A DNA stretch of 63,737 nucleotides, filler included, from Reclinomonas americana ATCC 50394 (GCA_048213135.1; 17 parts of 17 records of this genome joined end to end with filler, not necessarily neighbours in it), one strand, 5' to 3'. Positions 2,810 through 63,637 are shown, numbered from the whole stretch's first letter. Notes: generated from the letters alone by a model not told the origin. Translations and numbers: made by a program.

Positions 2810-5800
2810 ATGCCTCCCTCGCACACCCAGTGCCGACGCCACTCTGTGGTGGCACTGGTTGCTGTTCTACTTGTTCATGGTGAGTCACCTCTCCATTCCT
2901 TTTGACGAACACTGTTTTCCAAGTGCTCACTGTGTGATACAGTACCACTGGTGATTGCCACCGACTCGTATGCGCCTGGCAGCTCGAGTGCGCCGGAGCA
3001 GTTTCAGATTGTAAAGACTGTGGGCGAGGATGGTGCGTGCATTGCAATCTCTCATGCGCGTGTGCATTCTTCCTAGGCCTCACTCTCTCTTCTCCTCTTC
3101 TCCCTCTCTCCTCGCGCAGACCTCGACACCTCCTCCCCAACTGGCTCTCAGTCGGCCATCTGGGTCAACTGGACCAACCCCGTCAACCAGGGCAACGCGC
3201 CGCCGTCTGAGTTCGGTGTCGACGTGGCCAGCACTGGTGGCACCACCAAGTACACTGTTGCGTCTGCTATCCTTCTCCTCCTTCCGCTATCCCTCTCCTC
3301 TCCTCTGCTCACCCTCTCACCCTCTCCTCTCCCCTCCACCAACAGTGCTCGTCGGTCAACGCTATTGCGGCCAATGGCGGTCCTGCCTCTGGCGGCGCCG
3401 GCTGCTACGGCATGATTCTGCGCTACTTTGACCAGAACATCCAGGAGGGTGTCCAGTACACCATCGCTGTTGCGTCTCTCTTCTCCGTTCCCTCCCCTCC
3501 TTCCCCCCTCCCTCCCCCACTCATCTCATCTCTTCCCCCACCAACAGGCCTACTCGGTCAACTCGTACGGTGAGGGCGTTCGCACCTCGTCGCAGGTCGT
3601 GACGGTGCCGCTCGGCGGTACCCCGCGCCAGCCGACCAACCTGGCCATCAGCTACACGTCGGCCACCTCGTTTGTGCTGTCGTTCTACCCGCCGATCAAG
3701 CTTGGCCAGACCGGCGCCACCGGCACCGGCAACTCGAACTTCAACCAGCTGCAGACTCCGTTCTTCCAGGTGCAGATCCGCAGCTCGACTGGCACGTCGC
3801 TGACCGCCTGGACGCCGGTGACCTTCTACTCTGAGATCGTTGTCGGCAACAACGCCAACGCGGCGATTGTGCCGTTCACGAGCGGCCCGTTCTCGCAGCA
3901 GACGTGTGTGGTGTCGGGCACTGGCGCCACCGCCTCGGCCAGCCTGCTGCAGCCGAGCACTGGCTACGTGGTGCGCGCGCGCGCTGTGGGCCAGTGGGGC
4001 TTTGGCCCGTGGAGCACTGTTGCGTCTTTGCCTTTGTGATGTTGTGCGAAGCAGCTTGCTCACCTCACCCTTCTCTCCTCTTCTCTCGTAGACCGCCACG
4101 GTGACCACCCAGGACGGCAACCAGTCGCCGGGCAAGGTCCTGATCCCGACCATTGTGGCTGCGGCCTCTGACGGCGGTCTGCTGTCGTGGACGAGCCCTC
4201 AGCTGACTGGCGGTGCCATCACCGGCTGGAAGGTGGAGGCTGCGGCCTCGGCCAATGGCGACACTGTGATGTACAACGCCTTTGGCGCCTCGTTCACTGG
4301 CCTGCCGGTGACCGACACGGCCTTTGGCCGTGTGTCTGGTGGCCACATTTTGATCTCGAAGCTGTCGTCGACCAACATCACCAAGTACCGCATTCGCGTG
4401 ACTGCGCAGAACGCCTCTGGTGACGGCACTGCCACGCTCGACACCACCTCGCAGCAGACTCTCACCCTCAACGCTGCTGCCAACCCGACCCTCGGCACTG
4501 CCCCGGTTCTGGTGGCTTGCTGGTCGGTGACTGGTGGTACCACCATTTACTGCCTGGCCAGCACGACTGCTGCCACTGTGATTGGCAACGGTGGCTTTGG
4601 CGCTACTCCGTACACTTTCGGCGCCAACGGCGTTGCCAGTGCCTCCGGCACCGTGTCGATGGGCGCGAACGACCTCACCGGCACTGTGACCTTCAATGCC
4701 ACTGCTGCCGGTACCGTGAATCTTGTGGTGACGAACGCCACCAGTGGATCAGCCAACGGCGGCATCACGTTCATCTCTTCTCTTGCTGTGACTGCGCCCA
4801 CCAACGCCGTCTGGTTCAACCGCTCCGGCACCGCTGTCACTACCGTCGATGGATACGTCACGCTCGGCAACAACTTTGTGGTGCTGAACGTTGGATCACC
4901 GACTCAGCGCGGTGTGGTGGCGACAGCCACCACTGGCACTAACGTTGGTGGTGTCAACGTCGTCGGTTTCTTTGCCGGCACCAATGCCGCCAGCAATGGC
5001 GCGGCTGTCACTGATTTCCAGTACCTTGACGGCACCACCTCGACATCTGTCCGTAGTGCCTCTCGCTTCCTGGTGGCTATTCGCACCACTCCTTCGGCCA
5101 CCGCGACTGTTGGTGTGAACTGGACGCTGGTCAGCGGTGGCACTGCCGTGCAGCTGTACTGCTGCGGTACTAACGTCACTGACTCGAACGGCGCCGGTGC
5201 CGTCCCCACCGGCGCTGGAGCCAACGCAGGTGCCCTCACCGCCGCCAACTCGATCACCGTCATCGACATCACCGACACCTCGCTGACGTTTGTAATCAAC
5301 ATGACCGCCGGCGGTGCGCAGTACGTTGCGAACCAGGCCAACGCCAATGCGTCGTCTGCTGCCAGCGTCTACCAGTTTACTGCCACTGGCTCCGCCTTTG
5401 TGCGCGGTGTCGCTGTCGCCTCGGGCCTCAGCACCACCGCCAACAGCAACCAGCCCGCCACTGGCCACCTCGACGCCTGGCAGGTCACCCTCTCTGGCCT
5501 CCTCCCCGGCCGTCAGTACTTCTCACAGGTCTCCTTTTCCGTCACGAACGCCGGCAGCACCAACGCTTCCGCTGCCGCCTCACCGACTGGCAACAATTTC
5601 TGGACTACCACAAGTTGCGCACCTCACTTATTCTTTAACCCNNNNNNNNNNNNNNNNNNNNNNNNNNNNNNNNNNNNNNNNNNNNTTAATTAATTAANNN
5701 NNNNNNNNNNNNNNNNNNNNNNNNNNNNNNNNNNNNNNNNNTTTTCTCTTGCCGGTTTACATCTGTTCTCCTTCTCCCAATCGCAGATCGCGCTCCGGTC

Positions 5801-13365: not shown

Positions 13366-13400
13366 TTGATTTCGTATATGAAAATTGATTTCATATACGA
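13366..13400. promoter_or_regulatory. Candidate transcription-factor operator upstream of dctQ
   Basis: Perfect 12-bp inverted repeat TCGTATATGAAA-N5-TTTCATATACGA (13372-13400), also readable as two TTGATTTCRTATAYGA direct repeats. It is an AT-rich island in GC-rich DNA. Confidence 0.7.
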
Positions 13401-13442
13401 GAGAGGCGCTCGACGAGAACGGCGTCCCAATCGGAGGCGCCC

Positions 13443-13913
13443 TTGCATATCCTCGCCACCACCTATCGGGCGCTGCTGATCGCGCTCGTGGCGCTTATCG
13501 TCGCGATCGTCGCGATCGCGGTCATCTTCCGCTATGTGCTCAACACGCCGCTGATCTTCAGCTTCGACCTGGCGACGATCCTGTTCGTCTGGCTGGTCTT
13601 CCTCGGGCTCGCGCCGGCGGCGCATGAAGGCTCGCACATGGCGGTCGATCTCTTCACCGCCATGCTGCCGGAGGGGATCGCCAAGGCGCTGGCGGTGATC
13701 GTGCGACTGCTGATGATCGCCATCGCCTTGTTCCTGATCCGCCATTCCTGGGATCTTGCCATGCGCACCCGCATGGAGATCGCCTCGATGCGGATCTCGA
13801 TGATCTGGGTCTACATGGCGATGCCGGTCGGCTTTGCCGTCTTCGCGGCCTACGAGGCCTGGGCGCTGGCGATGAGCGCACTCGGCCGCTCGGTCGGGAG
13901 GCATGCGCCATGA
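13443..13913 (+). CDS. dctQ: TRAP transporter small permease
   Basis: VIFRYVLNTPL...FVWLVFLG...HMAVD and WVYMAMPVG; four TM helices; GGAGG RBS before a TTG start. Confidence 0.9.
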   Translation: MHILATTYRALLIALVALIVAIVAIAVIFRYVLNTPLIFSFDLATILFVWLVFLGLAPAAHEGSHMAVDLFTAMLPEGIAKALAVIVRLLMIAIALFLIRHSWDLAMRTRMEIASMRISMIWVYMAMPVGFAVFAAYEAWALAMSALGRSVGRHAP

Positions 13914-15181
13914 GCCCGAGCGCACTCCTTGGCGTCTTCCTGTCGCTCACCGTCATCGGCCTGCCGATCGCCTTCGTACTGCTCGGCACCGGCATCGCGA
14001 TGACGCTGGCTGACCCCGACATCCTCGAGGTCGCCTATATCCAGAACGTCATCGTCGGCACGCAATCGTTCCCGCTGATCGCGATCCCGCTCTTCATCCT
14101 CGCCGGCGAATTGATGAACATCTCCGGCATCACCCGCCGGCTGATGGATTTCGCCCAGGCGCTGACGGCGAACATGATCGGCGGCCTCGCCCAGGTGAAC
14201 ATCGTGCTGTCGACGCTGAAGGCCGGCATGATGGGCTCGGCCAATGCCGATGCCGCGATGGACGCCAAGACCCTCGTGCCCGAGATGGTCAATCGCGGCT
14301 ACAGCCCGGCCTATGCCTCGGTGGTAACCGCGGCCTCGGCCCTGATCGCGCCGATGATCCCGCCCGGCATCGGCCTCATCCTCTACGGCTTCGTCACCGA
14401 CACCTCGATCGGGCAGCTCTTCATGGCCGGCATCCTGCCCGGCCTGATCATGACGGTGGCGATGATGGCGATGTCGCACTGGGTCGCCAAGCGCCGCGGC
14501 TATGGCCGTGACAGCGAACCGGTCGACCGCGGACAGATGTGGCGCACCTTCTTCGGCTCGGTGCCGGCGCTGCTGATGCCCGTCATCATCGTGCTCGGCA
14601 TCCGTGGCGGCATCTTCACCGCCTCGGAGGCCGGCGCCGTCGCCGTGGTCTATTCGCTGATCTTCTGCGTGCTCTATCGCGAATGCGGCTGGAAGGACCT
14701 TGCCGACGCGCTGGCTTCGACGGCCTCGACGACCAGCGTGATCATGATCGTGCTGGCGGCCTCTGCGGCACTGAGCTGGACCCTGTCCTTCGAGCAATTG
14801 CCGCAAAAGGTCGCCGAGATGCTGGTCGACAGCTCCTCGAACCAGCTCTCGCTCTTCCTGATTGTCGCCGTGCTGCTGCTGATCGCCGGCATGTTCGTCG
14901 AAGGCACGGCGCTGATCCTGATCCTGGCGCCGATGTTCGCGCCGGCGGCGGCCAAGCTGAACGTCGACCCGGTCCATTTCGGCATCTTCTTCGTCTACAT
15001 GATCCATCTGGGCGGCATCACGCCGCCGGTCGGAACGATCATGTTCACGACCTGCGCGATCACGCGCGTGCCGCTGCAGGACTTCATCCGGGAATCGCTG
15101 CCCTGGCTCGTGATGCTGCTCGGCATCGCGGCGCTGATCGCCGCCGTCCCCGGCACCGCAACCTGGCTCGGCTATCTCTGA
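13910..15181 (+). CDS. dctM: TRAP transporter large permease
   Basis: SFPLIAIPLFILAGELMN, GGLAQVNI, GSANADAA, IPPGI, GIFTASEAG, DPVHFG and ITPPVG. It is followed by an RBS and 'AT' at the contig end (probable start of the next gene, perhaps dctP). Confidence 0.94.
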   Translation: MSPSALLGVFLSLTVIGLPIAFVLLGTGIAMTLADPDILEVAYIQNVIVGTQSFPLIAIPLFILAGELMNISGITRRLMDFAQALTANMIGGLAQVNIVLSTLKAGMMGSANADAAMDAKTLVPEMVNRGYSPAYASVVTAASALIAPMIPPGIGLILYGFVTDTSIGQLFMAGILPGLIMTVAMMAMSHWVAKRRGYGRDSEPVDRGQMWRTFFGSVPALLMPVIIVLGIRGGIFTASEAGAVAVVYSLIFCVLYRECGWKDLADALASTASTTSVIMIVLAASAALSWTLSFEQLPQKVAEMLVDSSSNQLSLFLIVAVLLLIAGMFVEGTALILILAPMFAPAAAKLNVDPVHFGIFFVYMIHLGGITPPVGTIMFTTCAITRVPLQDFIRESLPWLVMLLGIAALIAAVPGTATWLGYL

Positions 15182-15318
15182 ACGACCACAAGAACGACAG
15201 AACGGGAGGAAGACCAATNNNNNNNNNNNNNNNNNNNNNNNNNNNNNNNNNNNNNNNNNNNNTTAATTAATTAANNNNNNNNNNNNNNNNNNNNNNNNNN
15301 NNNNNNNNNNNNNNNNNN

Positions 15319-15755
15319 AGGTCGATGCGCCTCGGCCGATGCATTATGCGGTCAGGCTCGGGGCGCAATTCCCGCTGGCCGAGACGAGCTCCGGCGCAGT
15401 GCTGTTCGCCTATCAGCCGGAGCATCACCGGCAGGCGCTGCTCGATGCGAGCATCGCTTCCTTCCCCGAGCTGGCCGAGACCTTGCCCGAACGCGCGCGG
15501 AAGGTGCTCGCCGAAGGCGGCGAGCGCCGCGAGAGCCTCGTCGTCTCCGGCGTGACCAATCTCAGCCAGCCGGTCTTCGACCATCGCGGCGTCATCGCCG
15601 CCTGCCTCACCATCCCGTTCCTCGCCCAGAAGGGCCTTTCCGTCGATGTCGACGCGGCGGAACGGGCCGTCATCGCAACGGCGGCCGGAATCTCGGCCGC
15701 GCTCGGCTGGCGCGACCCGCGCCAGGCTACCGACAATGAAGGAGAAGCCGCATGA
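15319..15755 (+). CDS. IclR-family transcriptional regulator, C-terminal effector-binding domain (5' truncated)
   Basis: VRLGAQFPLAETSSGAVLFA and SLVVSGVTNLSQPVFDHRGVIAACLTI are typical of the IclR effector domain. Confidence 0.82.
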
Positions 15756-16975
15756 GCGGAGCGCTCTCGGGACTGCGCGTCCTCGATTTCAGCCACCTGC
15801 TGTTCGGCCCCTTCGCCACGCAGATGCTCGGCGATCTCGGCGCCGACGTGATCAAGGTCGAGCGGCCGGTCAGTGGCGACCTCTATCGGGACCTGCCGCC
15901 CTTCTTCAATCGGAAGGTCGGCGACTTCGAGAATCCGAGCTTCCTCGCCTGGAACCGCAACAAGCGCTCGCTCGCGGTCGATCTGAAGAACCCCGAGGGC
16001 AAGAAGTTGCTGCAGGACATCGCCGCCACCGCCGACGTCTTCGTCCAGAACTTCCGTCCGGGCGTGCTCGACCGGCTCGGCTTCGGCTATGAGGAACTGT
16101 CCCGCATCAATCCGCGGCTGATCTATTGCTCCGGCTCCGGCTATGGCGAGAGCGGCCCCTATCTCGAACGCCCCGGCCAGGACCTGCTGCTGCAGGGCCT
16201 CTCCGGCATCATGTCGATGACGGGCCGGGCCGGCGTCTCGCCGACGCCGCTCGGCGTCGCCATCGCCGACCAGCTCGGCTCCTACCACATGATCTACGGC
16301 ATCCTTGCCGCGCTCTACCATCGCGAGAAGACCGGCCGCGGCCAGAAGGTCGAGGTCGACCTGTTCCGGGCGCTGATCGCGCACCAGACCCAGGAATTCG
16401 TGACGACGCTCAACACCGGCCGCGTCTTCGAACGCCCAAGTTCGGGCATCGCCCATCCCGGCATGCCGGCACCTTTCGGCGTCTACCAGACCAGGGACGG
16501 TTTCCTCAACATCGCGATGAATCCCTTCGCCAAGCTGGTCGAGGCGCTGGAAGCGCCTGAGCTTGCTCGCTTCGACGATGCAGAGGCGCTGTTCGACCGG
16601 CGTGACGAGGCGCATGCAGCGATCGAGGCGGTGACGCAGACGCGCACGACTGCGGCCTGGATGGAGCGGCTGCTTGCCTTCGACCTCTGGTGCGGCGAGG
16701 TGCTGCGCCAGGAGGAGGTCCCGGACGATCCGCAGGTGAAGCACATGGACGCCTTCACCTCCTACCAGCATCCGGTGATCGGCGAGGTGAAGACGGTCAA
16801 TGTGCCGATCACCCTCTCCGAGACCCCCGGCAAGGTCGAGCGCCACGCGCCGATGGTCGGCGAGCACACGGTCGAGATCCTCGCCGAACTCGGCTTCGAC
16901 GGCGAGCGCATCGCGGCGCTGCGCGCCTCCGGCGCGGTCTGGGTCCACCCCAAGGCGGATGCGGCAGCGGCATGA
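15752..16975 (+). CDS. Class III CoA transferase (CaiB/BaiF family)
   Basis: LSGLRVLDFS, GPFATQMLGDLGADVIKVE, NRNKRSL, ADVFVQNFRPG, NPRLIYCS and GEHTVEIL. Confidence 0.95.
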   Translation: MSGALSGLRVLDFSHLLFGPFATQMLGDLGADVIKVERPVSGDLYRDLPPFFNRKVGDFENPSFLAWNRNKRSLAVDLKNPEGKKLLQDIAATADVFVQNFRPGVLDRLGFGYEELSRINPRLIYCSGSGYGESGPYLERPGQDLLLQGLSGIMSMTGRAGVSPTPLGVAIADQLGSYHMIYGILAALYHREKTGRGQKVEVDLFRALIAHQTQEFVTTLNTGRVFERPSSGIAHPGMPAPFGVYQTRDGFLNIAMNPFAKLVEALEAPELARFDDAEALFDRRDEAHAAIEAVTQTRTTAAWMERLLAFDLWCGEVLRQEEVPDDPQVKHMDAFTSYQHPVIGEVKTVNVPITLSETPGKVERHAPMVGEHTVEILAELGFDGERIAALRASGAVWVHPKADAAAA

Positions 16976-17569
16976 CCACGAGCTCGATCACGGTCGAGCG
17001 GCGCGGTACCGTCGCGCTGCTCACCTTCGCACGACCCGACCAGCTCAACGCCATGAGCGGTGCCATGGTCGAAGAGATCGTGGCGGCGATCGCCAATACC
17101 GAGCGTGACGACACAGCCCGAGCCCTCGTGCTGCGCGGCGCCGGCGGCAACTTCATGGCCGGGGCCGACATCAAGGCCTACGCGCAGCAATCAGCCGAGG
17201 CGTTCCGCGATTTCCAGGAAAGCGCCGGCCGCATCTACGGCGCGCTCGAAAGCCTGGCCAAGCCGGTGATCGCGGCGATCGAGGGCTACGCGCTCGGCGG
17301 CGGCTTCGAGATCGCACTCTCGGCCGACCTCATCGTCGCGCATCCGGACGCAAAGCTAGGCCTGCCCGAGGTCAAACTCGGGCTCGTCCCGGGCGGCGGC
17401 GGGACACAGCGGCTCGCCCGCAAGCTCGGCCCCAATCGGGCCGCCGAACTGCTGATGACCGGCCGCTTCGCCAGTGCGCAAGAGATGGCGAACTGGGGCG
17501 TGGTCAACCGCATCGCCGAGGACACGCTTGGCGAGGCGCTGGCGTTGGCCGAGCAGATGGCGCGCCATC
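16972..17569 (+). CDS. Enoyl-CoA hydratase/isomerase (crotonase) family (3' truncated)
   Basis: FMAGADIK, KPVIAAIEGYALGGGFEIAL and LGLPEVKLGLVPGGGGTQRL; ATGA overlap with the CoA transferase. Confidence 0.93.
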
Positions 17570-17669
17570 NNNNNNNNNNNNNNNNNNNNNNNNNNNNNNN
17601 NNNNNNNNNNNNNTTAATTAATTAANNNNNNNNNNNNNNNNNNNNNNNNNNNNNNNNNNNNNNNNNNNN

Positions 17670-17969
17670 GGTCAGGCCATTGAGGAAGCCGGGGTGCCGA
17701 AAACGGTGAGGCAGATACCGGGGTTTCTTGGTGAGGAAGCCGGCGATCGAGGCGGCATAGCCGGCGTTCTGCTCGTGGCGGAACGAGAGCACGCGGATGC
17801 CAGCCGCCTGGGCCATGCGGCCGAAGTCGGTGATCGGAATCCCCGGCACGCCATAGATCGTATCGAGACCGTTGAGCTTCAGCGCATCGATGATGAGGTT
17901 GAAGCCGTCGGTCAGTTCGCGCTCCGTTTCGGGCGCGGCAGAAGAGATGCTTTGTACGACTGCGGACAT
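17670..17969 (-). CDS. oxc: Oxalyl-CoA decarboxylase, N-terminal fragment (3' truncated; homopolymer errors near the contig end)
   Basis: [30 protein letters not shown]...[21 protein letters not shown](GICLTVSA)PGFLNGLT is the recognisable Oxc N-terminus. Confidence 0.92.
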
Positions 17970-18030
17970 CCCGCTTTCTCCCTAGTCGATTGTTTCTTAT
18001 GGTAATTTTTGCTGTTGATCTTGGTCCGGC

Positions 18031-18717
18031 TCAGTCGAGCTGGACGAATTGCTCGACGTGCTGGCGCAGCTTGAGCGTATGCTCGCGCACCAGGCGCTCG
18101 GCGCGTTCACCGTTGCGGGTCTCCAGGGCCTCGATGATCTCCTTGTGATCGACGATCGAACGGCGGGCCCGATCCCTCTCGAAGATCGTGCGCTGGCGAA
18201 TGCCGCGCACATGCGTGAACAGGCCGTTGGTGATCTCGGCGATGAGCTTGCAGCCAGAGAGCGCGATGATCGCCGCGTGGAAGCGGATATTGGCGTCGGA
18301 ATACTCGCCCATATGCTCTTCGATCGCGTCACTGTCGAAGGTGTCGACGAGGCCGTGCAGCCTGGCGATCTCGGCATCGGAAGCGACTTCGGTGGCGAGC
18401 CGGGCAGCCATGCTCTCGAGCGCGGCCCAGACCGTGATCATCTCGAGAATCTCAGCCTTGGTCTTGCGCACGATGAAGATGCCGCGGCGCGGTGCGATCC
18501 TGACCAGCCCCTCCTGCTCGAGCTGGGCGAGGGCCTCGCGCAACGGCGTGCGGCTGACACCGAACTGAAGCGACAGCGCACGTTCGTCGAGCCGAAGCTC
18601 TGCGCCCGCATCGTAAATCTTCATCGCGCCGATCGCGACCTTCAGCGCCTCGTAGGTACGGCTCTTGAGGCTCTGAACCTCCTCGATCGGCTGAATTTCA
18701 AGCTGTGCCTTGATCAT
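18031..18717 (-). CDS. GntR-family (FCD domain) transcriptional regulator
   Basis: HTH RLDERALSLQFGVSRTPLREALAQLEQEGLV; FCD motifs NIRFH and SIVDHKEIIEAL. The start MIKAQ was chosen over the longer ORF. Confidence 0.92.
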   Translation of the reverse strand: MIKAQLEIQPIEEVQSLKSRTYEALKVAIGAMKIYDAGAELRLDERALSLQFGVSRTPLREALAQLEQEGLVRIAPRRGIFIVRKTKAEILEMITVWAALESMAARLATEVASDAEIARLHGLVDTFDSDAIEEHMGEYSDANIRFHAAIIALSGCKLIAEITNGLFTHVRGIRQRTIFERDRARRSIVDHKEIIEALETRNGERAERLVREHTLKLRQHVEQFVQLD

Positions 18718-18790
18718 TGCGACGTCGATTTCCGTTTTGCCTTGTCCGAGATCCGCCCGTCCGCAGCACGCGTCACAGGGTGGTGGTTTC

Positions 18791-18885
18791 TGGCATACCA
18801 TATAACGAAAGAAATGACCACGCAACGGCCGAAACCAAGCAATTACTATGCTGCAGCGCATCCAAATATGGCATATTGCATGCCA
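18791..18885. promoter_or_regulatory. Candidate GntR operators in the divergent gntR/tctA intergenic region
   Basis: TGGCATACCA near-palindrome (18791-18800) and TGGCAT-N5-ATGCCA palindrome (18869-18885). Confidence 0.55.
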
Positions 18886-18983
18886 CAAAGTTTCATCCTA
18901 GGCTAACTCAAACAAGGCCAGTCAGCTCTGCGTTGGTCATTGCGCGGTCCCTGAACAAGGCCATTTTATGGGGACGAAGCGCT

Positions 18984-20498
18984 ATGGATGAACTGAACGC
19001 CCTGTTCGGCGGATTCGCCGTCGCTCTCAGCGCCTACCACATCCTGCTCATGGTCATCGGCATCACGCTTGGTGTCGTCATCGGTGTTCTGCCAGGCCTC
19101 GGCGGCGCCAATGGCGTGGCCATTCTCTTGCCCCTGACCTTCACCATGCCGCCGACCTCGGCGATCATCCTATTGACCAGCATCTATTGGGGCGCGCTGT
19201 TCGGTGGCGCCATCACCTCGATCCTCTTCAATATTCCCGGCGAGCCTTGGTCGGTGGCGACGACTTTCGACGGGCATCCGATGGCGCAAAACGGCAAGGC
19301 GGACGAGGCGCTGGTCGGCGCCTTCACGGCCTCCTTCGTCGGCGCGATCTTCGCGGTCTGCCTGATCACCTTCCTCGCGCCGGTGGTCGCGAAATTCGCC
19401 TTGAAGTTCGGTCCTGCCGAGTTCTTCGCGGTGCAATTCCTCACCTTCGCCAGCTTCATCGGCATGGGTCGGGGCTCACCGTTCAAGACGATCGCCTCGA
19501 TGTGCCTCGGCTTCGCGCTCGCCTCCGTCGGCCTGGACGGCGTCACCGGCACGCTCAGGATGACCTTCGGGCAGGACGAGCTGCTGAACGGCTTCAAGTT
19601 CCTCGTCGCCGTCATCGGCCTGTTCGGCATCGGCGAGATCCTCTGCTCGATGGAGGACGGGCTGAAATTCAACGGCGCCGCCGCCAAGCTGCGCATGGAC
19701 GCTGTCATCCGCACCTGGAAACAGCTGCCCGGAATGTGGCTGACCTTTCTGCGCAGCTGCATCGTCGGCTGCTGGATGGGCATCACCCCGGGTGGGGCGA
19801 CACCGGCCTCCTTCATGGGCTATGGCATCGCCAAGCGCCTGTCGAAGCGGGGCGACAATTTCGGCAAGGGCGAGCTCGAGGGCGTGGTGGCGCCGGAGAC
19901 GGCCGCCCACGCCGCCGGCACCGCCGCCCTGCTGCCGATGCTGACGCTCGGCATCCCGGGCTCGCCGACCGCAGCGGTGCTGCTTGGCGGCTTGCTGATC
20001 TGGGGCCTGCAGCCCGGCCCGCTGCTCTTTGTCGAGCAGAAGGACTTCGTCTGGGGCCTGATCGCCTCGATGTATCTCGGCAACGTCGTCGGCCTGATCA
20101 TGGTGCTGACCTGCGTGCCCTTCTTCGCCGCGATCCTGCGTGTACCTTTCTCGATCATCGCGCCGGCCATCGTCTTCGTCTGTGCCATCGGTGCCTTCAC
20201 CGTGAACAACGCGATGTTCGATGTCTGGATGATGCTGGTCTTCGGCGTGCTCGGCTATCTCTTCAACAAGCTGCGCTACCCGCTGCCGCCGCTGGTGCTG
20301 GCGCTCGTGCTCGGCGACCAGGCCGAGAGCTCCTTCCGCCAGGCCATGCTGGTCTCGCAGGGCAATGTCGGCGTGTTCTGGTCGAACTGGCTCTGCGGCG
20401 GGATCATGACGCTCGGCCTGGTGATGGCCTTCTGGCCGGCCCTGCAGGCGCTGCGCGCGAAACTCTCGAGCAACCACGCCGTCGCCCGCGCTGCCTGA
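18984..20498 (+). CDS. tctA: Tripartite tricarboxylate transporter permease
   Basis: GVLPGLGGANGVAILLP, ILFNIPGEP, TTFDGHPMA, GVVAPETAAHA and LTLGIPGS. Confidence 0.94.
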   Translation: MDELNALFGGFAVALSAYHILLMVIGITLGVVIGVLPGLGGANGVAILLPLTFTMPPTSAIILLTSIYWGALFGGAITSILFNIPGEPWSVATTFDGHPMAQNGKADEALVGAFTASFVGAIFAVCLITFLAPVVAKFALKFGPAEFFAVQFLTFASFIGMGRGSPFKTIASMCLGFALASVGLDGVTGTLRMTFGQDELLNGFKFLVAVIGLFGIGEILCSMEDGLKFNGAAAKLRMDAVIRTWKQLPGMWLTFLRSCIVGCWMGITPGGATPASFMGYGIAKRLSKRGDNFGKGELEGVVAPETAAHAAGTAALLPMLTLGIPGSPTAAVLLGGLLIWGLQPGPLLFVEQKDFVWGLIASMYLGNVVGLIMVLTCVPFFAAILRVPFSIIAPAIVFVCAIGAFTVNNAMFDVWMMLVFGVLGYLFNKLRYPLPPLVLALVLGDQAESSFRQAMLVSQGNVGVFWSNWLCGGIMTLGLVMAFWPALQALRAKLSSNHAVARAA

Positions 20499-20580
20499 AG
20501 CCGCGCGGGCCGGTTCCCGCAACATAGTCGCCTTCATGACTTTACCAACGCGGCAACAAAGCCGCCTCAAGGGAGGAAGC

Positions 20581-21558
20581 GTGATGATCCGGACGGGAGT
20601 GTCCAAGACCAGGACAATTGCGGCAACGCTGGCGGCGAGCGCCTGCCTGACCTCGCCAGCCTGGGCGCAGCAGAAGTGGGAACCGAGCAAGCCCGTGACG
20701 CTGGTTATCCCGGCAGGCACCGGTGGCGGTGCCGATCAGATGGCGCGCTTCATCCAGGGCGTCGTCCAGAAGCACAATCTGATGAAGCAGCCGCTGATCG
20801 TGATCAACAAGGCCGGCGGCGCGGGCGCCGAAGGCTTCCTGGAGATGAAGGCCAGCGCCAACGATCCGCACAAGATCGCGATCACCCTGTCGAACCTGTT
20901 CACGACCCCGCTCGGAACCGGTTCGCCCTTCAACTGGAAGGACATGAAACCGGTCGCGATGCTGGCGCTCGACCAGTTCATCCTCTGGACGAACAGCGAG
21001 AAGCCCTACAAGACGGCGAAGGATTACATCGATGCGGTGAAAGCCGGCGATGACCGCCAGTTCAAGATGGGTGGCACCGGCTCGAAGCAGGAAGACCAGA
21101 TCGTAACGGCGGCGGTCGAGCTGCAGACGGGCGGCAAGAAGTTCACCTATGTGCCCTATGCCGGCGGCGGCCAGGTCGCCGTGCAACTCGTCGGCAATCA
21201 TGTCGACTCGACCGTGAATAATCCGATCGAGGCCGTCGGCCAATGGCGAGCCGGGCAGTTGCGCCCGCTCTGCATCTTCGATGCACAGCGCTCGACCTAC
21301 ACCGCCAAGGTCACCGAGAAGGAAGCCTGGAGCGACATCCCGACCTGCAAGGAATCGGGCCTGCCGGTCGAGTACCAGATGCTGCGCGGCATCTTCACCA
21401 CCAAGAATACCAAGCCCGAGCAGATCGCCTTCTATGTCGACCTGCTGAAGAAGGTGATGGCGACGCCGGATTGGAAAGAGTTCATGGAGAAGGGAGCCTT
21501 CAACCAGACCTTCATGAGCGGCCCTGAGTTCGAGAAATGGCTCACCAGTGCCGAGACT
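20581..21558 (+). CDS. tctC: Tripartite tricarboxylate transporter substrate-binding protein, Bug/TctC (3' truncated)
   Basis: Signal peptide ending AWA, PSKPVTLVIPAGTGGGAD, VINKAGGAG and VPYAGGG; GGAGG RBS. Confidence 0.92.
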
Positions 21559-23999: not shown

Positions 24000-24030
24000 C
24001 GCATCCTCCTGGCAGCGCTACCTGCGCCAT

Positions 24031-28870: not shown

Positions 28871-29837
28871 ACAAGTGAAAAACCAGACAGCATACAGTCG
28901 CACCTTCTCGCAGTCACTCTTCTCTCACACTCACTCACACGCACACTGTGTCTCACACAATCACACGCGTGTGAGAGATACGATGCGACTTAGGCGCGCG
29001 CTTTTTTAGTCGCTCATTGAGTCGTTGACTGTGTGCGCTTTCCTCTCTGTCTCTCTCCTCTGTTTCTCTGTGTTGCGCATGTTGTTGTGCTGCGTGTTAC
29101 ACTGTGTTGTTTGTGTCACAGTCACATTGTTTCGTCCACGTATGATTCGATATCTCATCAGTCATTGATATGCAGGAGGATGATCCATTGACGGTGTGCG
29201 ACTCGGTCACACTTGTTGCGTATTCTCTGTTTGAGAAGTGTATGTGCCCCTGCCCTCTCTTCCTCCTCCTCCTCCTCCTCCTCCTCCTGCTTGTCCTCTC
29301 TCCTTGTTCTCCTCTTGAACAGTGTCTCTCGGGCAGTCTCTGTGTTCTCTCGTCGGACCTTCCTCTCTCAGCCTTTGCCCTACTGACCATGGTCTCTCTA
29401 GAATGTTGCTCCTCCTTCGTCTCCTTGCCTGGCCCTCTTTTCCTTCCGCATCCTTTTCTCCAACCTCTCCGTCTCCTTCTGCTCCTCTTCATTCTCCTCG
29501 TCTACCTCCCCCTCTCTGTCGCCCCCTCTTCCTCCGCCTTGCTCCTCTTTTCCTTCCTCCACTCTCTTTACTTGGCCATCGCCTTCCCTTCTCTCTCTCT
29601 CTCTCTCNNNNNNNNNNNNNNNNNNNNNNNNNNNNNNNNNNNNNNNNNNNNTTAATTAATTAANNNNNNNNNNNNNNNNNNNNNNNNNNNNNNNNNNNNN
29701 NNNNNNNCTCTTTACTTCTCCCCCACCTGTCGGACCTTTGCCGTCTTCTCCTCGCCGTGCCTTCTCTGTTTTCCTTCCATCTGTCATCCCTGCTCCGTCG
29801 TCTCCCCATTTCCCACCCCTGCTCCTCTTGCCCACAG

Positions 29838-31560
29838 GACAAGACCATTCGCTGCCTGTGTAGCTGCGCAGTAGCCGCCGCCTGCTGTGGCGAATTCGTA
29901 AACATTCGCCACCAAATCTGCGAGTTTCGCCGCTCTTCCCTCCACTCCACCCTTTCCCTCTCCTTCTCGCTCACCTTGCGCCGCCCAGTGGTCTGTTTGC
30001 CGCCTTCGACAAGGCCCTACTCTTCTCACGGCAAAAGCTGGACGTGGAGACCGACTGGGAACTCGCGTCGGTGGTGCTGCTGCGTCTGGAGGTGTTCTTC
30101 TCCAACTCGGAGTTTGAGCATCCGCTGCTGGTGGAGTTTGGGTACATGCTGCGCGACATGATCAACAATAAGCTGCGCGAGCCGAGTGCCGTCGTAATGT
30201 CAAGTTGCGTACTACGTATTTCTTTCCCCTCCGCCTCCTCCCTTCTCTAACTCCCCCTCCCCCCAGTCTCGGTGGACGAATTCGAAGAATCCGCTCGGGA
30301 CCTATGGAACGAATTCAACGTGCAGCACCTGCCGCGCATGTACAAGAGCGACACGGCGAGGGTGCGATCATCCACCTGCCAGTATGTCGCTCCACCTGTC
30401 GCCTCACTTTTGCTCTCATTGCGCAGCAAAAAATCTCCCAACAAAAGGACGAGCTCGTCAACTCATTTCTTGCCAGTCTCCTCACCATTGACTATGCCGC
30501 CCTCGGCACACTTCACATAATGCGAGGTTGGGAGATTCTGACGCTTTCTTATGACGCAACCCTATCTCACTCATCCTCCGGCGCCAGCTTTCCACCTGAG
30601 TCCCAAGGAATTGCAGCCGATTATTACTGAGGAGACCGTTTACTCGCATCCACATGTGCGTCTTTCTGACATCTGATTGTTGCTATAATACGTCTGCTGA
30701 CTCGTCTCGCACAGCTGCTACTGGCCGAGGTGCAAAAGCGACGCGAGTACCGCGAAGCCTTCTTTAACTACACAGGCAGCGATTTCTCGGTGTGTGTGCT
30801 CGTGGTATTCTCCTTGGCTATTCTTCACGACCTCACACTCTGCATCTGCTGCAGCCACAATTCGCTGGACGGGAGAGCGCGTGGATTATGTGGAGCACAC
30901 GTGCTGAGCTGGCGCAAGAGGCCTATGTGAAATCTGTGCGGATCTTGTGTGCTGGAGTGCAATGGATCGTCAGTTGCTCATTCTCGTTTGCAACACAGCT
31001 TCCTTCATTCACCACGCTACACGTGCGAGTGCTCGCCGCACGCGGCTTGTTGAAGAAAGGAAAAGGAGGTGCGCATGTTGTTGTTGAAATGTGTGCATGG
31101 ACACACCTGCTCACGCTTGTGATGTCTCAGGTCGCAACCGTGCGTACGTGCTCGTGGAATTTAATGATCGCATCGAGCAGTCGGACGTGTGCGAGGGTGG
31201 CTCCGACATTGCCTTTAATTACAGCGTGTCCATTCAGTTGCGTAACATAATAATCCCACCGCTAGATTCCTTCTCTCTCCCTGCTTCTGTCTCCCACGTC
31301 ACAATCCTTCCGTTTACTTCAACTTGCCTTTTTTTCCTATCTCGTACATCCTCGCTCTCACCAGAATATATCGCTTCCTTGACACTCGCACTCTGCTTGT
31401 TTTCATCCTATTTGCTCTCAGTTTGTCTGTTACTCAGCTTGCAAATCACCTTGCTCTCACTCCCCCCTTCTCTCCTTCCGTGCGTGTCTATTGTCTTAAT
31501 TGCCCGTCATTTCTCCCTTTGTCCCCTTCCTCTCTCTCTCTCTGGTACTCTCCTACGCTG

Positions 31561-31601: not shown

Positions 31602-34600
31602 CAGTCCCTCTACCGTCCACTTTATCTTACATTGTTCTCCTCTTTCCCCTTCCCTCCTTCCCTCCCTCCCCCCTTCCCCTCTCTTCCCCCCTCTCCAGGG
31701 ACCCCAAAATCAGCCGCACATCCGTGGCCACCATCTCCCTCTTCACCGAAACCGGCTCGGAGGACGTGACCACACACCGCTTCCTCGGTCGCATCCAACT
31801 CAACATGGTCGACCTCTCCCGCCAGGTCATGCGCGGGTGGGTCGATCTGGAAAAGCGCAGCGAGGCGTCACACGTGACGGGCCAGCTTCGCGTTCTGTGT
31901 GTGCTCGAGCCACCACTACTCGACGCCCGGCCAAAGCACATGTACGAGGCTGCGGAGTGTGCCGAGATGCTGAGGTGTGGCTCGTGTGTCAACGGTCCAT
32001 GTATTTGATTCATGCACTGACGCTCGCGCTATAGCATCGCCGCTCGTGTCTTGCGCGACCGTCTCGATTCTGTGTGGCTGGCAGAGATTCTCGGTGCTCG
32101 TCTCGGTCTCACGCCGCTGCAAACGAACGTCGTGTTGCGTACCGATGCTCTTTTTGCTCTGTATAGCCTTTGTACACTTTGTTATCTCACGATGCTGTGC
32201 AGGCTGCTGGAGGCCGTGCTGCCGCGACTCGGGTCTAACGACCTGCAAGTCGTGCAATTCTTCCAAGCACGCCTCACGGCCCTTGCTCGCATCTTGGCCG
32301 CCCAGCGTGCCGACCTGTTCGTGATGGCCGCCGATTTGGACACGGTGCGTCGCGTCGCCCTCACCACGTACCGTCGCATGGAGGACGCGGTACGCAAGTA
32401 TTTGGAACACATACCGGCTCGGCGGGCCGGTCTGGTCGAGTGCATCAAGTTGTTTTGCATGTTTTACGAGTCGCCGGCGGTGCAGGTGCGTGTATGTGGA
32501 AAGCAGTCGTTCTTCTTGTTTCTCTCTCCCTCTGCCACTGTTTGCTCGGCGATTATGTGTCTGTTATCACTCCCACATCTTCCCCTTTACCTTTCTTCCC
32601 TTCTCCATTGCTGTTGACCTGTTTCCGTGCCACTTCTCTGCCTCCCACTCACTGCTTTGCACTGTCTTCTTCTATTCCCTTCCACTTTTCCCCTTTCGCC
32701 CGTTCTTCTCCACCCGTTCTCGTCCACTCTTTGGCCTCCTCAGTCTGTCTCTCGCTGTGCCGAATCTATTGCGTTCTAATTCACCAATTTGTCGACAGGC
32801 TCTGTGTTCCTGTCTGCGCTGCCTTGTCCTCTTCGATTGTCCTGTGTTCTCTATCTGCCCTTATTTCTAACTTTCTCAAGTTCTTAACCGACCTTTCTCT
32901 CTCTGTCTCTTCGTCGTTCTTTCTCCCCCAGCCTCTGGCTCCACCACATGTCCAGCGACGCTGCTGACTATTCTCACTCCGCCCGTTTCCTTTCCGCTCT
33001 CTCACCCTCCTTTGCATTCCACTCTCTCCCCTCCACCCCTCCTCGCTTTCTTTCTTTCTCTCTTTCCCCCGCACCCCCGTTGTCAACGGGAACACTGTTG
33101 TTTGTCAACCTTTTTTCCTACTTCTTGTGCTCTCTCCCATTCCTCCTGTCCCATTCCCCTCGCCCTTCATTGCCCTCTCCCTTCCCCTTCACCCACCCTT
33201 CCCCTTTTCCCACCCTTCCCCTTCCCCTCCCACCTTCCCCCCTTCTCGCAGGACTTCTACACCCGCCTTCTCTCCTCCGACGGCCAAGTCCTGGCCTCCT
33301 CCCAAAAGGAAGCCCTCACCTCCCTGGTACGCGTGGCCCTCGAAGGCAAAGTGGAGGCACGCCGGAGAATGCCTGCCGAGGCCGCCGAGATGCCCAAGTT
33401 TGTGCTCGACACGATCGACGACATGCCACTGTTGCTGGAGGATGTTCTCTCCTCGTCGTCCACGCTGTTTGCCGAGTTGCGCTCGTCCCCTCCCCATCCT
33501 CTCATGAAGTGTGACCCTGACGACGATGTCGCGCAGATACCTCAACCTGGAGGAGGTCGTCGTGCACATTGTGGTCCACCGGCTGCAGACGGCACTGCTG
33601 GTCATTGCGAATCACAGACCACTGGTCGGTGTCGATCGCCTCGACGCGCTGCTGTCGTCGGCATACTCGTTCCTTCAACACCACGACGTGAAGATCATCA
33701 TGTTGCGTGGGATGCGAGTCCCTTTCGTGGCTGTTGCGGGCACTGATCTGACAACACAGCAACGAGTCGGAGTTTCCAGCACACTGGTTCGAGCCGCACA
33801 TTTCCATGTGGATTGTGCATCAGCGAGACGAGTTGGTGGACTCGGCGCGCGATTTTGTGATTGAGGATGCGGTTTGTTTGCGTTCCGCTCTCCTCTTCTT
33901 CCATCGCCTCCGTCTCACTTGCGCGCGCCCGCACACAGTGGGAAATGTCCAGCAGCGAGTCCACACCCAGCTGGTCCGTTGTGCAGCTGTTCACGGTGGC
34001 GTACGAGAAGCTGGTTGGCCTGCACGCTTTCTACGACAACAATCCGCTGGCCATGCGCTCTCCCGAGTACCTGGGCCATTCGAGAGAGCTTGCCGAGGTT
34101 TGATTCTCTGGTTTATTTGCATCACTCTCCAAGTTATTGAACATCGATTTGCAGATTCTGATGGTGGCATTTGCGACGTTTGTGGAAACCATGCACGAAT
34201 CCTTTTCTGGCGTCTCGCGGCAGGCTTCATTCCGAAAGCGGACGGCCTCGTCGTCGGCCCTGCTGACCGCCCCTCCACGCAAGCGGAGAGACACTACCAG
34301 CGGGCGAAGCAAACTGCGTGTGCCGGATCCACCAGAGGGGCTGCCGGCGCTTCGTGAGCAGGTGCCCACTCTTGGTCCTTTTCTCTCCCCCCTGTACGTG
34401 TCATAACATCTCTCGTTCGTCTTATCGCAGATGCTGGTGCAGTTGGCCAACTTCGAGCACGTTATTCATTTGACTCAAAAACTGTGTGGCGAGTACGCTG
34501 TCTTCAAGAAGGATGCGGTGGTGTCGCCGCTCGTTTCGCGATTCCTCGACAATGTGTCGACGCGCGCCGAGAGCGCTTTTAATACGATTGCGCAGATGGT

Positions 34601-60210: not shown

Positions 60211-61232
60211 TGGTGGAAAACAGGCTCAAAACCAGAACCAAGCAAACAATCTCCCACTCAGGGCAACTAGAACCATAGCGTCGCTACTGCAGCACCCAGC
60301 TTCAACGAGTTCAGCGTCTACGTTGCAATTGGCCGCTGACACCATTTGCGCCACGAAATCCTCTCGAGGCCAACAGGCGTTTTTGGCTTTGTCTCCCGAA
60401 TGGGAACATGAATGTTGGAGAACAGCAATTATGTTTTGTATATTGTCATGGTTCTAGAACGTCGACTTCAAGCATTGCGACGTCTCCTTGAAGAAATCGA
60501 AAACACGCATCCTGCACCCTCTCCCCACGCCCCAGACGCCCCAGACGCATTATCTAACGCCTGTCCACCTCTCGATATCTCGCCTTCCGTCCTGCACGCG
60601 CAACTTTACCGGCAGGACACGCTGAGACAACAAGTCTTGCAGGATTCGTCGCAAAGAAGATGAGGTGTGCACCCACTCTCACTCTCTCGCCACTACACTC
60701 TGTCTCACACACTCTCTCCCCTTTCTCTCCTCCTGTNNNNNNNNNNNNNNNNNNNNNNNNNNNNNNNNNNNNNNNNNNNNTTAATTAATTAANNNNNNNN
60801 NNNNNNNNNNNNNNNNNNNNNNNNNNNNNNNNNNNNGGGGGGGGGGGGGAAGGGTCAACAAAAGGCAAGAGGATTCGCAAGCTCTCACGCAAAAATCAAG
60901 ACTCTGTCCTCTCGCGGCACCACGAGAGGAAAAGGCATATCGTTTCTCTCTCGCATGTGACATCCACAAGCACAGAAGAAAAACAGGAAGCTGAAAAGAG
61001 GAGATCTTTGATCGACATCCTTGCCCCCTTCCCCCCTTCTCTCTCTCTCTCTCTCTGCCTGTCTGTCTTTCTCTGTCTCTCTCCTCTCTCTCTATTTCAC
61101 CTACTCGCATATGTGAGTGTGCGTCAGGCACACAAGAAAGACAGAAAGCTGAAAAGAGGAGATCTTTGATCGACATCCTTGGCGCGCTCTCTCTCTCTCT
61201 CTCGCCACCCCCTCTCTCCCCCATTACGCAAC

Positions 61233-63637
61233 ATGAATTCCTCTCCTGACAAAACCCGAGGAACTTGTTCCACGTCTCGTCTCCTCTCAGTGCCTGCTGG
61301 CAGCCGACCACCCACACGCAGAGTCGCGCACGAGTGAGCATCACATTCAGTCGCCGGTGATCGCGGAGGAAGTCCATGGTGCCTGCGTTGAGGCCAGTGT
61401 GAGAAAGGGGAAGCGATTACTTCAGCTCAATTTCGACGCACCTCCCGTGCGCACACACGAGACGATAATAATGTCTTTCTCACGACCTTGGAATCCATCC
61501 TGTGTGGTGCACAATAAGTAATCGAGTGACGACGGAACGCACTTTTTTCGTCATCGCACACGCAACAACAGTGTTGATATCCAGATCGCTTCGGCGCTGC
61601 GAGTTGCGGCGCAGACGATCACGCAACGCGCCGACTTGTGCACGGTACGGAGTGATGACGCCGACTGACACGTTGGCAAGATTGGGGTCCACGTCACGGA
61701 GATTCTCCAGCAGCCTCACCAGCTGATCCACGAAATCGACTTCTCGGTCATTGCGCAGAGAATGCAGATCTGGAGAGGGATTTGTGAGGAGCAGCACAAC
61801 TGCATAGAAAATGAATACGGAGGCGACAATCACCAGATCCGGCTCGCCCGTACTCGTGCCGCGTGCCCGCGAGGTCGTAAAACACCACTGGACCACAGTA
61901 CCGCGACTCGTACAACGAACTGCAGGTGACAATGAATGAGCTCTCCTTGCGCAACAAAAAGCGCACAAACACACGAGAGTGCAAACCATCGAAGGTTCTG
62001 CGCCTCGATGCTGTCCTCGAGCAGATGATCGTATGTCAACTCGTTGGCCAGCGCACAAATGGTGGGATGCATGCGGTATTGAGTGCGAAGCATGCTCCGT
62101 GTCACGGCTACACGAGGAGGATTGCAGAGCGTGAGACGAGATCACAGAGAGAGAGAGAAGATGGACGAGAGGTGACGCAACTATTGGACGGCGTGCGACA
62201 CCTCAGCAATCGCTCCATCAACGAGCGAGCATACGGAATCTCTTCGCCGCTGTACTGAGCGAGAATGGTGGCCGGCAACTGCTTCGGATCACCGACCTGT
62301 GGAGACACCATGTCAGCAAACCGCTCTCACCGCTGCGCATGACAGTTGGAATACAAGAAGCACCAGAATGCACTTGGAGCACCCGTAGCGGAGCGGGATA
62401 AGTGCAGAAGGCTCCACGCATTGCGCGGCCTCATCGATAACCACAGTCGGGAAGCGCTGCGCATCGCCGCACCTGCACACATCCATTGTCAACAAACAAG
62501 ACAGGCATCTCCGTCGAAACCGTGTCTCTCATGCGACGCAACATGTTGCGCAGCATGGCACTGGCGCTGAGTGTGCACACCACAATGTCGGCTCGTGCAA
62601 CAATCCTCTGTCGAAGGTGCTCCCGCTCGGCCATTGGACGCATCGACTTGGACTGTTACGCAAGTGAGGGGAGTCATGAATGGAAACTTAGTCAGCAAAT
62701 AGGAACGCACATCCTTGGAGCCATTTTGCAACTCTGCAACAACGCCACCGTAAACACGCTGGCAAATGATCGAGAAAGAGGGACACGGAACAACAAACCC
62801 AGTTCGACTTTCTTGTCAATGTGACAACTCTGGACAATCTCCTCTTCTTCGGCGCTCCGAGTGCCCGTCCGTCGTCCACCGCTTCCCACGCGGACCATGC
62901 TGCGATGATGTACACCATAGTCAGCGACCACTCGTGTTCCTCATTCTTCTTCTCTCACGAACCTAAAGTTACCCGGCAACTGTGGGGTCGGCCGTGCAGC
63001 AATGTCGACAAACAGGCGGTGCATGCGAATAAGCAATTCCTCCGCCGCCACATTGGAGGGCGCACATAGCAGGATCGGCGGGTGCTGGCGATCGCGCTGC
63101 TCCATTCTCGCCAATGCTGTGAAAGGAGCAGAGACACGGAGAGGGGAAAGAGAGGGGAAAGAGAGGGGAAAGAGAGGGGAAAAGGAGGGAAAGAGGGGTG
63201 TGTGAGCATCGAGCTTGCAAACAGGGTGCTTAAGGGGTCTCACCTCGCTCCGACAGCAACGCCTCCATGATACCAATCACAGTGCGCGTCTTGCCGGTTC
63301 CCGGTGGGCCTTCCACCAACACGATTCTGCACAGCGAGGGATGGTTACGAAGGCAAGGCATATGTGGAAGAACCAACTTCAGGGCGGTACGCACCCACGT
63401 CGGCAAGCCACAACCTCCGAAATCGCTTGCAGCTGATACTTGTTCAAGTCGTTCTTCAGCGGCCGCCACTTGCTCGCCGCTCGATAGGAGGGCAGTGTCG
63501 ACGTTCCGTCCGACGACACAGCCGGGTTGAGAATGCTCTTGAACACCTTGCACTCCAGCATGTGCTCTCTCAGCAGCAGGACGCTCTCGTACTCGCGGCG
63601 CACGGACGTGAGACTGCAGAGTCGTTGGACACTGCAA
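61233..63637 (-). CDS. Superfamily 1B helicase, Sen1/senataxin/Upf1-like (multi-exon, truncated at both ends)
   Basis: LNKYQLQAI, LVEGPPGTGKT, ILLCAPSNVA, VVIDEAAQ, IL|VGDPKQLPAT, LRTQYRMHP, GVITPYRAQV, NTV|DGFQGREKD and RRLNVMLTRAR. Confidence 0.93.

Follow-up and report, generated by a model that had tools for sequence, protein, structure and literature searches.

An extra-T class of 5' splice sites used after exons that do not end in G in Reclinomonas americana DNA

We analysed a window of DNA from Reclinomonas americana ATCC 50394 (GCA_048213135.1), that is, a whole stretch of 63,737 bases in which 17 contigs are joined by 100-nt linkers, and compared the 5' splice sites (donors) of its intron-rich eukaryotic part (1-11308 and 27718-63737, ~47 kb). 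Two classes of donors are found there. In class A, the exon ends in G and almost any intron tail follows, GTGCGT being the most frequent. In class B, the exon ends in A or T (rarely C) and the intron opens with a near-invariant heptamer, GTT(G/T)CGT; in what follows, a slash outside brackets marks the end of the exon. Ordinary and extra-T donors occur as twins: GTGCGT and GTTGCGT, GTGAGT and GTTGAGT, and GTTCGT and GTTTCGT. It is very probable that class B donors exist and that they depend on the exon end.

Donor form and the last exon base

The dependence on the exon end is clearest in an anchored set of 35 donors, which were fixed by homology in five genes and to which a single repetitive gene contributes five class B sites. 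Twenty-two of these donors follow G and 13 follow another base. After G, GTGCGT occurs seven times, GTGAGA and GTTTGT twice each, and 11 other sequences once each (e.g., GTACTC, GTCTTG, GTGACC); GTTGCG does not occur. After a base other than G, GTTGCG occurs ten times and GTTTCGT, GTGCGT and GTGAGT once each. An earlier sequence-only reading of this DNA had claimed that GTTGCG donors are used only after exons not ending in G, and this holds within the window (0/22 after G versus 10/13 after non-G, Fisher p = 1.6e-6). When all extra-T forms are taken together, the counts are 0/22 and 11/13 (p = 1.9e-7). Furthermore, the preference crosses over, as GTGCGT outnumbers GTTGCG by seven to none after G but is outnumbered by ten to one after other bases (p = 2.5e-4). 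Extra-T forms make up 11/35 of the anchored donors in ~47 kb, and it is on this count that the statement that they serve a large share of introns rests.

The rule runs in one direction, as had been proposed. Exons that end in another base than G also use ordinary donors, namely T/GTGCGT at 62710, A/GTGCGT at 46653, C/GTGCGT near 46514 and A/GTGAGT at 53989. Exons that end in G use donors other than GTTGCG, most commonly GTGCGT (7/22 of the anchored ones). Some donors after G are nearly free of consensus (G/GTACTC, G/GTCTTG, G/GTGACC and G/GTACTT, at 36408-37102 on the minus strand and 53597 on the plus strand), and most of the signal at these sites seems to lie in the exon end. The base before class B donors may itself be under selection at synonymous sites, since all six phase-0 class B donors follow a codon with A or T at the third position (ACT, GCT, ACT, GTT, CGT and GGA) despite a G+C content at third codon positions (GC3) of ~0.55-0.83 in the genes.

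All 20 GTTGCG sites and the five comparison sites of the sequence-only reading were confirmed in position and strand. The base before the 20 sites is T in ten, A in nine and C in one, never G, and the base after the hexamer is T in 17 and C in three. With the two other extra-T donors of that list included, the 22 preceding bases are T in ten, A in ten, C in two and G in none. The hexamer GTTGCG itself is present in 65 copies on both strands of the whole window, where base composition predicts 39.8. Those not claimed as donors, 45 in all, are preceded by C (14), G (13), T (12) or A (6). Because these copies often follow G, G/GTTGCG is not depleted in the DNA and is missing at donors only.

Some copies outside the donor list can be placed individually. 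G/GTTGCGT at 59386..59392 (+) lies within a conserved RtcA exon (TIGR03399 240-297; profile match 59265-59444) and is not a donor. C/GTTGCGT at 61621..61627 (-) stays unspliced within a conserved helicase exon, and T/GTTGCGC at 46270 (-), near the 3' end of an importin-like gene, is read through as coding sequence. On the sense strand near the same 3' end, T/GTTGCGC at 46240 (-) may belong either to a 40-nt intron or to coding sequence. A short palindrome at 62536-62551 holds the donor at 62542, so that GTTGCG also appears on the opposite strand at 62545, where it is antisense and not a donor.

A composition-only score of intron-likeness was also applied to copies of the extended motif. Eight of the nine G-preceded copies score negative and the ninth, which lies in a conserved exon, scores +1.4; 19 of 50 copies preceded by another base score positive. 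The score backs part of the claimed sites only, and seven of the claimed introns are not CT-rich.

Junctions fixed by homology and by a motif-free gene finder

Homology places class B junctions in several genes, and the anchors offered for the helicase, RtcA and FN3 junctions are backed by Pfam matches with an open frame, by an RtcA profile and by FN3 repeat spacing, respectively. In the Upf1-like helicase gene (61233..63613, minus strand), removal of 12 introns of 58-127 nt gives a single open frame of 510 amino acids with the SF1 motifs in order. The Pfam AAA_12 match has position 144 on the last residue before the donor at 61566 and position 145 on the first residue after the intron, and the AAA_11 match runs through ~207/208 across the junction at 62542. 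Eight donors of this gene follow G (GTGCGT twice, GTGAGA, GTTCGT, GTTTGT, GTGCTT, GTTTGC and GTGATT), and T/GTGCGT at 62710 belongs to it as well. Its class B introns are T/GTTGCGT at 61500..61566 (67 nt) and 62473..62542 (70 nt), which have the Pfam continuity just described, and A/GTTGCGT at 62108..62181 (74 nt), which the motif-free gene finder described below also recovered; all three are on the minus strand and are removed in the open 510-residue frame.

The RtcA gene (56791..59722, plus strand) crosses two linkers, and its junctions were scored with a profile built from 67 full-length homologues. Its last intron, A/GTTGCGT at 59580..59641 (62 nt, with a CTAAC branch-like site), is the best of 270 GT/GC-AG alternatives, with 84.2 bits against 81.6 for the next one, which has a GC donor, and 75.4 for the unspliced sequence. 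Seven donors of this gene follow G (56920, 57148, 57910, 58031, 58295, 58677 and 59443); those at 57910, 58031, 58677 and 59443 are each the top choice among two to four candidates. The two-exon profile alone favours GC-AG over GT-AG at two places: at 58295 the GC-AG alternative stands 2.5 bits above, and at 56849, where GT-AG ranks second of 18, it stands 1.2 bits above. At 56849, a three-exon model with donors at 56849 and 56920, which keeps a 12-nt micro-exon at 56908-56919 (+) between the C/GTTTCGT and G/GTGCGT donors, scores 102.2 bits, 7.1 more than the 95.1 obtained when the micro-exon is skipped. The intron C/GTTTCGT at 56849..56907 (+), one of the comparison sites, was recovered by the motif-free finder as well. 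The NCBIfam match stops short of the RtcA C-terminus, and a PDB search with the 27 amino acids of the last exon gave spurious matches to repeat proteins only.

In the PhyH gene, an in-frame TGA stands directly after the donor T/GTTGCGT at 54299, and the intron 54299..54354 (+, 56 nt) is the sole GT-AG pair that restores the frame of the C-terminal half and so joins the two PhyH halves. An 18-nt micro-exon of the same gene (54057-54074, +) encodes the residues before the conserved WHQ/D junction and is flanked by A/GTGAGT and G/GTTTGA donors. In the giant FN3 protein, splicing at 3469 brings back the Y-x7-N-x2-G spacing of the intronless repeats, and the other four splices connect long frames of strong bias in the correct phase.

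We also wanted donors that owe nothing to the motif. A Viterbi gene finder was therefore given GT...AG, stop codons, self-trained codon usage and intron base composition, and the donor motif was kept out of it because circular reasoning was to be avoided; a second run added an acceptor matrix. GTTGCG makes up ten of the 67 donors predicted by the finder (3257, 3469, 4019, 30204, 31237, 33702, 37735, 48806, 52211 and 62181), against a background of 56 GTTGCG among 5830 GT sites (binomial p = 1e-9), and all ten are preceded by non-G. Five more predicted donors have the form GTT(G/T)(C/A)G, namely 46830 and 56849 and the new ones 29924, 38752 and 52373. In the finder set, GTTGCG follows G in 0/24 and non-G in 10/43 (p = 0.011), and extra-T forms together follow G in 0/24 and non-G in 15/43 (p = 5e-4). 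The finder is noisy; for example, it put a kinase donor at 36647, where Pfam coordinates and reading give G/GTACTC at 36627. Such errors dilute the donor signal and cannot create it. A self-trained finder with donor matrices did no better than the motif-free one and kept known errors (the kinase donor at 36647).

These results bear on whether the class is an artefact, produced by mis-placed junctions, by chance, by assembly errors that add T, or by a mobile intron family whose ends are conserved. In favour of an artefact, frame reading alone placed six to seven of the 20 sites, the claimed donor at 61232 lacks a partner exon, and bacterial contigs occur in an assembly that is itself fragmented. 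Against this stand the motif-free recovery and the profile and frame checks, which pass in five genes. A mobile intron or introner family was rejected: in an all-against-all blastn comparison of the 22 introns, only three pairs matched, and these over no more than 12-13 nt of CT-rich sequence. An extra T introduced by sequencing error was rejected likewise, since such an insertion would not depend on the preceding exon base. We regard an artefact as largely refuted and very improbable.

How the extra-T donors may be read

The reading that we prefer, tentatively and with not quite an even chance of being right, is that class B is the class A signal, G/GT(G/T)CGT, read one base downstream, with a U1 that has changed along with the sites. 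The intron's own first G would replace the last G of the exon, and U would sit where the first G of the intron normally is. Written from -1, class A is G-G-U-G-C-G-U, and written from +1, class B is G-U-U-G-C-G-U, so that the two differ at the second base only. The same RNA would read both forms as one element, G-N-U-G-C-G-U, first U1 and then U6 one base further out, and the cleavage point would be set by the position of the GU. Through co-evolution, the U1 5' arm would carry G and C in place of the two pseudouridines found in most eukaryotes; because the C of the element is near-invariant, a partner with G at that place is expected. The cross-over of preferences would follow because one element is read in two positions, and plain compensation of strength does not predict a cross-over.

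The standard U1 5' arm is ACUUACCUG. Duplex energies were calculated with the standard U1 5' end in the form printed in Tan et al. 2016 (PMC4856993). For GUUGAGU, the +1 register gives -6.8 kcal/mol and the normal register +2.3 kcal/mol, and the window's ACA/GUUGAGUG pairs in the +1 register about as well (-6.8 kcal/mol) as the published test site ACA/GUCAAGUAUA (-6.5 kcal/mol). For GUUGCGU, the +1 register gives only +0.4 to +1.9 kcal/mol and the normal register +2.7 kcal/mol, and even G/GUGCGU reaches only -7.8 kcal/mol. The shifted register suggested by the sequence-only reading is thus upheld in part: the second class is real and linked to the exon base as a one-base register change predicts, with 0/22 extra-T donors following G, but standard U1 fails for GTTGCGT. 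Since the standard 5' end barely pairs with GUUGCGU, a co-evolved or a second U1 would be needed. That the U1 arm is altered from the near-universal ACUUAC so as to pair with GCGU in two positions, or that there are two U1 small nuclear RNAs (snRNAs), is possible, although we lean towards doubting it. A possible reason for the missing G before class B is that a G at -1 makes the normal register the better one (-5.6 versus +1.0), so that selection would no longer maintain the tail.

Several points weigh against the shifted-element reading. Which RNA reads the element, in which register and with what sequence is what we infer from the DNA. With standard U1, GUUGCGU reaches +0.5 to -1.4 kcal/mol at best in any register. 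In a toy model with invented U1 arms, which counts as modelling rather than evidence, a single arm never gave both preferences and a pair of arms did; with a toy arm that pairs with GCGU, non-G/GUGCGU (-9.1) still ranks above non-G/GUUGCGU (-6.2 to -7.5). If class B were purely a shift of class A, the base before it should resemble the one at -2 of class A, yet G is found in 0/22 of the former and 5/22 of the latter (p = 0.048). T is as frequent as A before class B, for which pairing to U10 does not account. The motif alone is insufficient for donor use, as the unspliced copies at 61627 and 46270 show. In addition, the sample consists of 35 anchored donors from five genes in ~47 kb, and one gene gives five of the class B sites.

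The toy model favours two U1 snRNAs, a paralogue with an arm complementary to GUUGCGU for class B and the main U1 for class A. Only such a pair of variants fits both classes: G/GUGCGU gives -15.7 with one, and non-G/GUUGCGU gives -10.3 to -11.8 with the other, which is better than non-G/GUGCGU with the first (-9.1). Expressed variant U1 genes are reported to occur in humans (PMC3561869 and PMC10870369). On the other side, no snRNA gene is present in the window and the variants of the model are invented; moreover, a variant pairing with GUUGCGU binds G/GUUGCGU at least as well (-11.2), which leaves the absence of G unexplained. We consider this explanation unlikely. No U1, U6 or other snRNA gene was found in the window at Rfam gathering scores, nor did a separate search find any tRNA gene, and an snRNA scan of the window relaxed to E <= 1 gave only chance matches of the microsatellite type.

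The exon-end counts also bear on a register with a bulged U, in which U1 would pair with G+1 and U+2 in the normal way, the U at +2 or +3 would be bulged, GCGU would be paired as in class A, and the cut site would not be shifted. This arrangement has as many pairs as the shift, and one-base bulges at +2/+3 were validated in human cells, with 68 predicted sites, 54 of them left after curation, according to the relevant part of Tan et al. 2016 (PMC4856993). However, a G at the exon end would add a pair, so that G at -1 should be favoured or at least neutral, yet GTTGCG follows G in 0/22 and non-G in 10/13. Non-G/GTGCGT, which has the same pairs without a bulge, should also outnumber non-G/GTTGCGT, and the count is one against ten. 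A bulged U is for these reasons an unlikely account of class B.

Ordinary compensation, read by U5 and U6 and not by U1, would explain the two classes without any register: exons ending in G would lean on U5 loop 1, and the others would need a strong intron-side signal for U6 or protein, the extra U being a lineage quirk without register meaning. In animals and plants, an anti-correlation between AG//GUNNN and NN//GURAG donors is described in the text of PMC11732430 at hand and reportedly also in PMC9803359 and PMC11842720, and class A tails are very loose here (e.g., GTACTC, GTCTTG and GTGACC). Nevertheless, in the normal position GUUGCGU shows no complementarity to the U6 ACAGA box and gains it one base outward, and the GTGCGT/GTTGCG cross-over needs a positional explanation. 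Compensation, and with it the view of the extra U as a quirk, appears improbable. The anti-correlation of exon-end G with intron-side strength, which defines the two major 5' splice-site classes in the available text of PMC11732430, is nonetheless seen in the window, where G-ending exons have loose tails and the others strict ones. The difference from the //GURAG class is that the donors here are GU-U-GCGU, with the conserved block one base further from the cut, and that the split is close to categorical: the 13 non-G donors are 11 GTT(G/T)CG, one GTGCGT and one GTGAGT. What is new is an intron-side class with its block one base late, making up 11/35 of the anchored donors and excluding G at the exon end.

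Noncanonical U1 registers are familiar from human splicing. A shifted (+1) register of U1 at atypical human 5' splice sites was reportedly described by Roca and Krainer in 2009, and one-base bulge registers (+2/+3) between the 5' splice site and U1 are said to have been described by Roca et al. in 2012. Both kinds of register were proven in human cells according to the passages of Tan et al. 2016 at hand, which put the validated noncanonical registers together at 1.5% of human sites (PMC4856993). Class B resembles the human +1 register in the non-G exon end, in GU followed by an extra base and a consensus tail, and, on the reading preferred here, in the use of G+1 for the exon-end G. It differs from it in its share (11/35 of the anchored donors, against that 1.5% for all human noncanonical registers), in its dominant form, which carries a GCGU that standard U1 cannot pair with, and in its exon-end base, which is A or T, rarely C and never G. 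The human mechanism therefore does not transfer unchanged, because GUUGCGU hardly pairs with standard U1. Class B also shares GUU... donors and a consensus tail one base late with the +2/+3 bulge registers, but these gain from an exon-end G, which the extra-T class excludes.

A closer likeness in sequence is found in Ostreococcus lucimarinus, where donors outside chromosome 2 are GTGCGTG and matching snRNA changes were raised as a possibility (Irimia and Roy 2008, PMC2483917). Both are GC-rich protists with a GTGCGT donor consensus, and no relatedness between them is claimed; the passages of that paper at hand mention neither an extra-T class nor a dependence on the exon-end base. A full-text search of the literature gave no report of this donor class among the matches listed.

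If the U1 arm is indeed altered or two U1 snRNAs are kept, 5' splice-site recognition has been rewired in this lineage, with ~1/3 of introns using a register that serves a tiny share of human sites, and this would be the first noncanonical U1/U6 register that is a major, selected splice-site class. Debate continues over how a single U1 and a single U6 can serve thousands of different donors, and over why there are exon-side and intron-side classes. With an intron-side class that is almost invariant, displaced by one base in its conserved block and excluded after exon-end G, this genome would be a natural experiment: its U1 and U6 sequences would directly reveal whether shifted registers can become a principal way of recognising donors and whether the sites and the U1 5' arm can co-evolve. 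Gene prediction would also need separate models for the two classes, as finders trained on a single donor matrix will put ~1/3 of this genome's exon ends in the wrong place.

Intron type, individual introns and the rest of the window

The introns at the helicase, RtcA, PhyH and FN3 junctions begin with GT and end with AG, and their removal restores the frame, as expected of U2-type GT-AG introns. The 3' ends of the 22 class B and the comparison introns, read by eye, have a YTRAY-like branch site, a pyrimidine-rich tract and YAG. Because the 3' ends of the two classes are alike, a single spliceosome is likely. U12-type introns are marked by the donor /(A or G)TATCCTT and the branch site TCCTTAAC; these motifs are absent from class B donors and 3' ends, and the minor spliceosome was rejected. 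A cut one base downstream, giving TT..., was also rejected, as every frame would break.

The FN3 gene has five class B introns on the plus strand. T/GTTGCGT at 3257..3345 (89 nt, phase 0) was found exactly by the motif-free finder, and the frame is open across the splice. T/GTTGCGT at 3469..3547 (79 nt), found by the finder and by repeat spacing, has the same 3' end; the two introns are paralogues that arose through FN3 repeat duplication. T/GTTGCGT at 4019..4091 (73 nt), also a finder prediction, has open frames of 603 nt upstream and 1548 nt downstream. A/GTTGCGC at 5614..5786 spans an assembly linker, is consistent with phase 1 and lies between open frames of 1521 nt upstream and 2078 nt downstream. 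A/GTTGCGT at 7782..7951 (170 nt) joins open frames of 2037 nt and 2.6 kb in phase 1; the finder put the exon end at 7780. Whereas introns elsewhere are CT-rich, this one consists almost wholly of purines (G/A) over its first 90 nt (7789-7880, +).

An unnamed gene at 29.8-36 kb on the plus strand contains A/GTTGCGT at 30204..30266 (63 nt) and T/GTTGCGT at 33702..33759 (58 nt), both found by the motif-free finder. At A/GTTGCGT, 31237..31243, the finder ends an exon and several acceptors keep the frame open, so that the acceptor is uncertain. Three candidate introns come from frame reading in this gene, which has no known relatives: T/GTTGCGT at 32134..32202 (69 nt), where an early finder run took a GT 2 nt upstream; A/GTTGCGC at 33476..33536 (61 nt), where the finder took 33467-33509 with a poor AAG acceptor; and T/GTTGCGT at 35838..35909 (72 nt).

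Elsewhere, the motif-free finder gave C/GTTGCGT at 37667..37735 (-, 69 nt) upstream of the kinase domain, and A/GTTGCGC at 52211..52280 (+, 70 nt). In the importin-5-like gene it gave A/GTTGCGT at 48743..48806 (-, 64 nt), with an IPO5-like TPR match on the downstream exon, and the comparison site A/GTTGAGT at 46766..46830 (-), whose acceptor is 62 or 65 nt away. After the helicase core, T/GTTGCGT at 61226..61232 (-) is a candidate donor; its downstream exon is not convincing, and the contig ends in repeats. Behind the core, at 60950-61200 (-), a ~100-nt unit containing (GA)n occurs twice in tandem.

Beyond the earlier list, the finder predicted three further candidates: the CT-rich A/GTTTCGT at 38698..38752 (-, 55 nt), T/GTTTCGT at 52373..52443 (+, 71 nt), which is CT-rich with a weak AAG acceptor, and A/GTTTCGC at 29924..29988 (+, 65 nt). 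T/GTTGCGT at 29215..29221 (+) is followed by CT-rich sequence and has a composition score of 36.7; it is a candidate outside any gene model.

Each linker consists of 44 N, a 12-nt palindromic spacer with stops in six frames, and 44 N (5642-5741 and 15 other places). Since RtcA spans three successive contigs, the contig order is at least partly real. The eukaryotic genes encode the giant FN3 protein, a kinase, a LamG-like protein, a 2OG-oxygenase, the importin-5-like protein, PhyH, RtcA and the Upf1-like helicase. For the 2OG-oxygenase open reading frame (ORF), the protein relatives found are only 34-44% identical. A search with a helicase exon against longer proteins did not find proteins of the organism itself or of close relatives, and a search with an importin exon against metagenome contigs found no relative.

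The eight contigs at 11409-27617 carry long intronless ORFs with a GC3 of 0.83-0.95. Their products are bacterial: ABC and TRAP/TTT transporters, CoA-transferase III, enoyl-CoA hydratase, and regulators of the TetR, GntR and HxlR types. For the CoA-transferase, identity is 96% with a Rhizobiales genome and 92% with a Bosea bin. Protist and alphaproteobacterial DNA are thus mixed in this record, the bacterium being either a contaminant or an associate. In the eukaryotic part, some introns contain microsatellites of the (GT)n/(CA)n type (48440-48560 on the minus strand and 34685-34930 on the plus strand); because these stay open in frame, stop-to-stop ORFs read through such introns.

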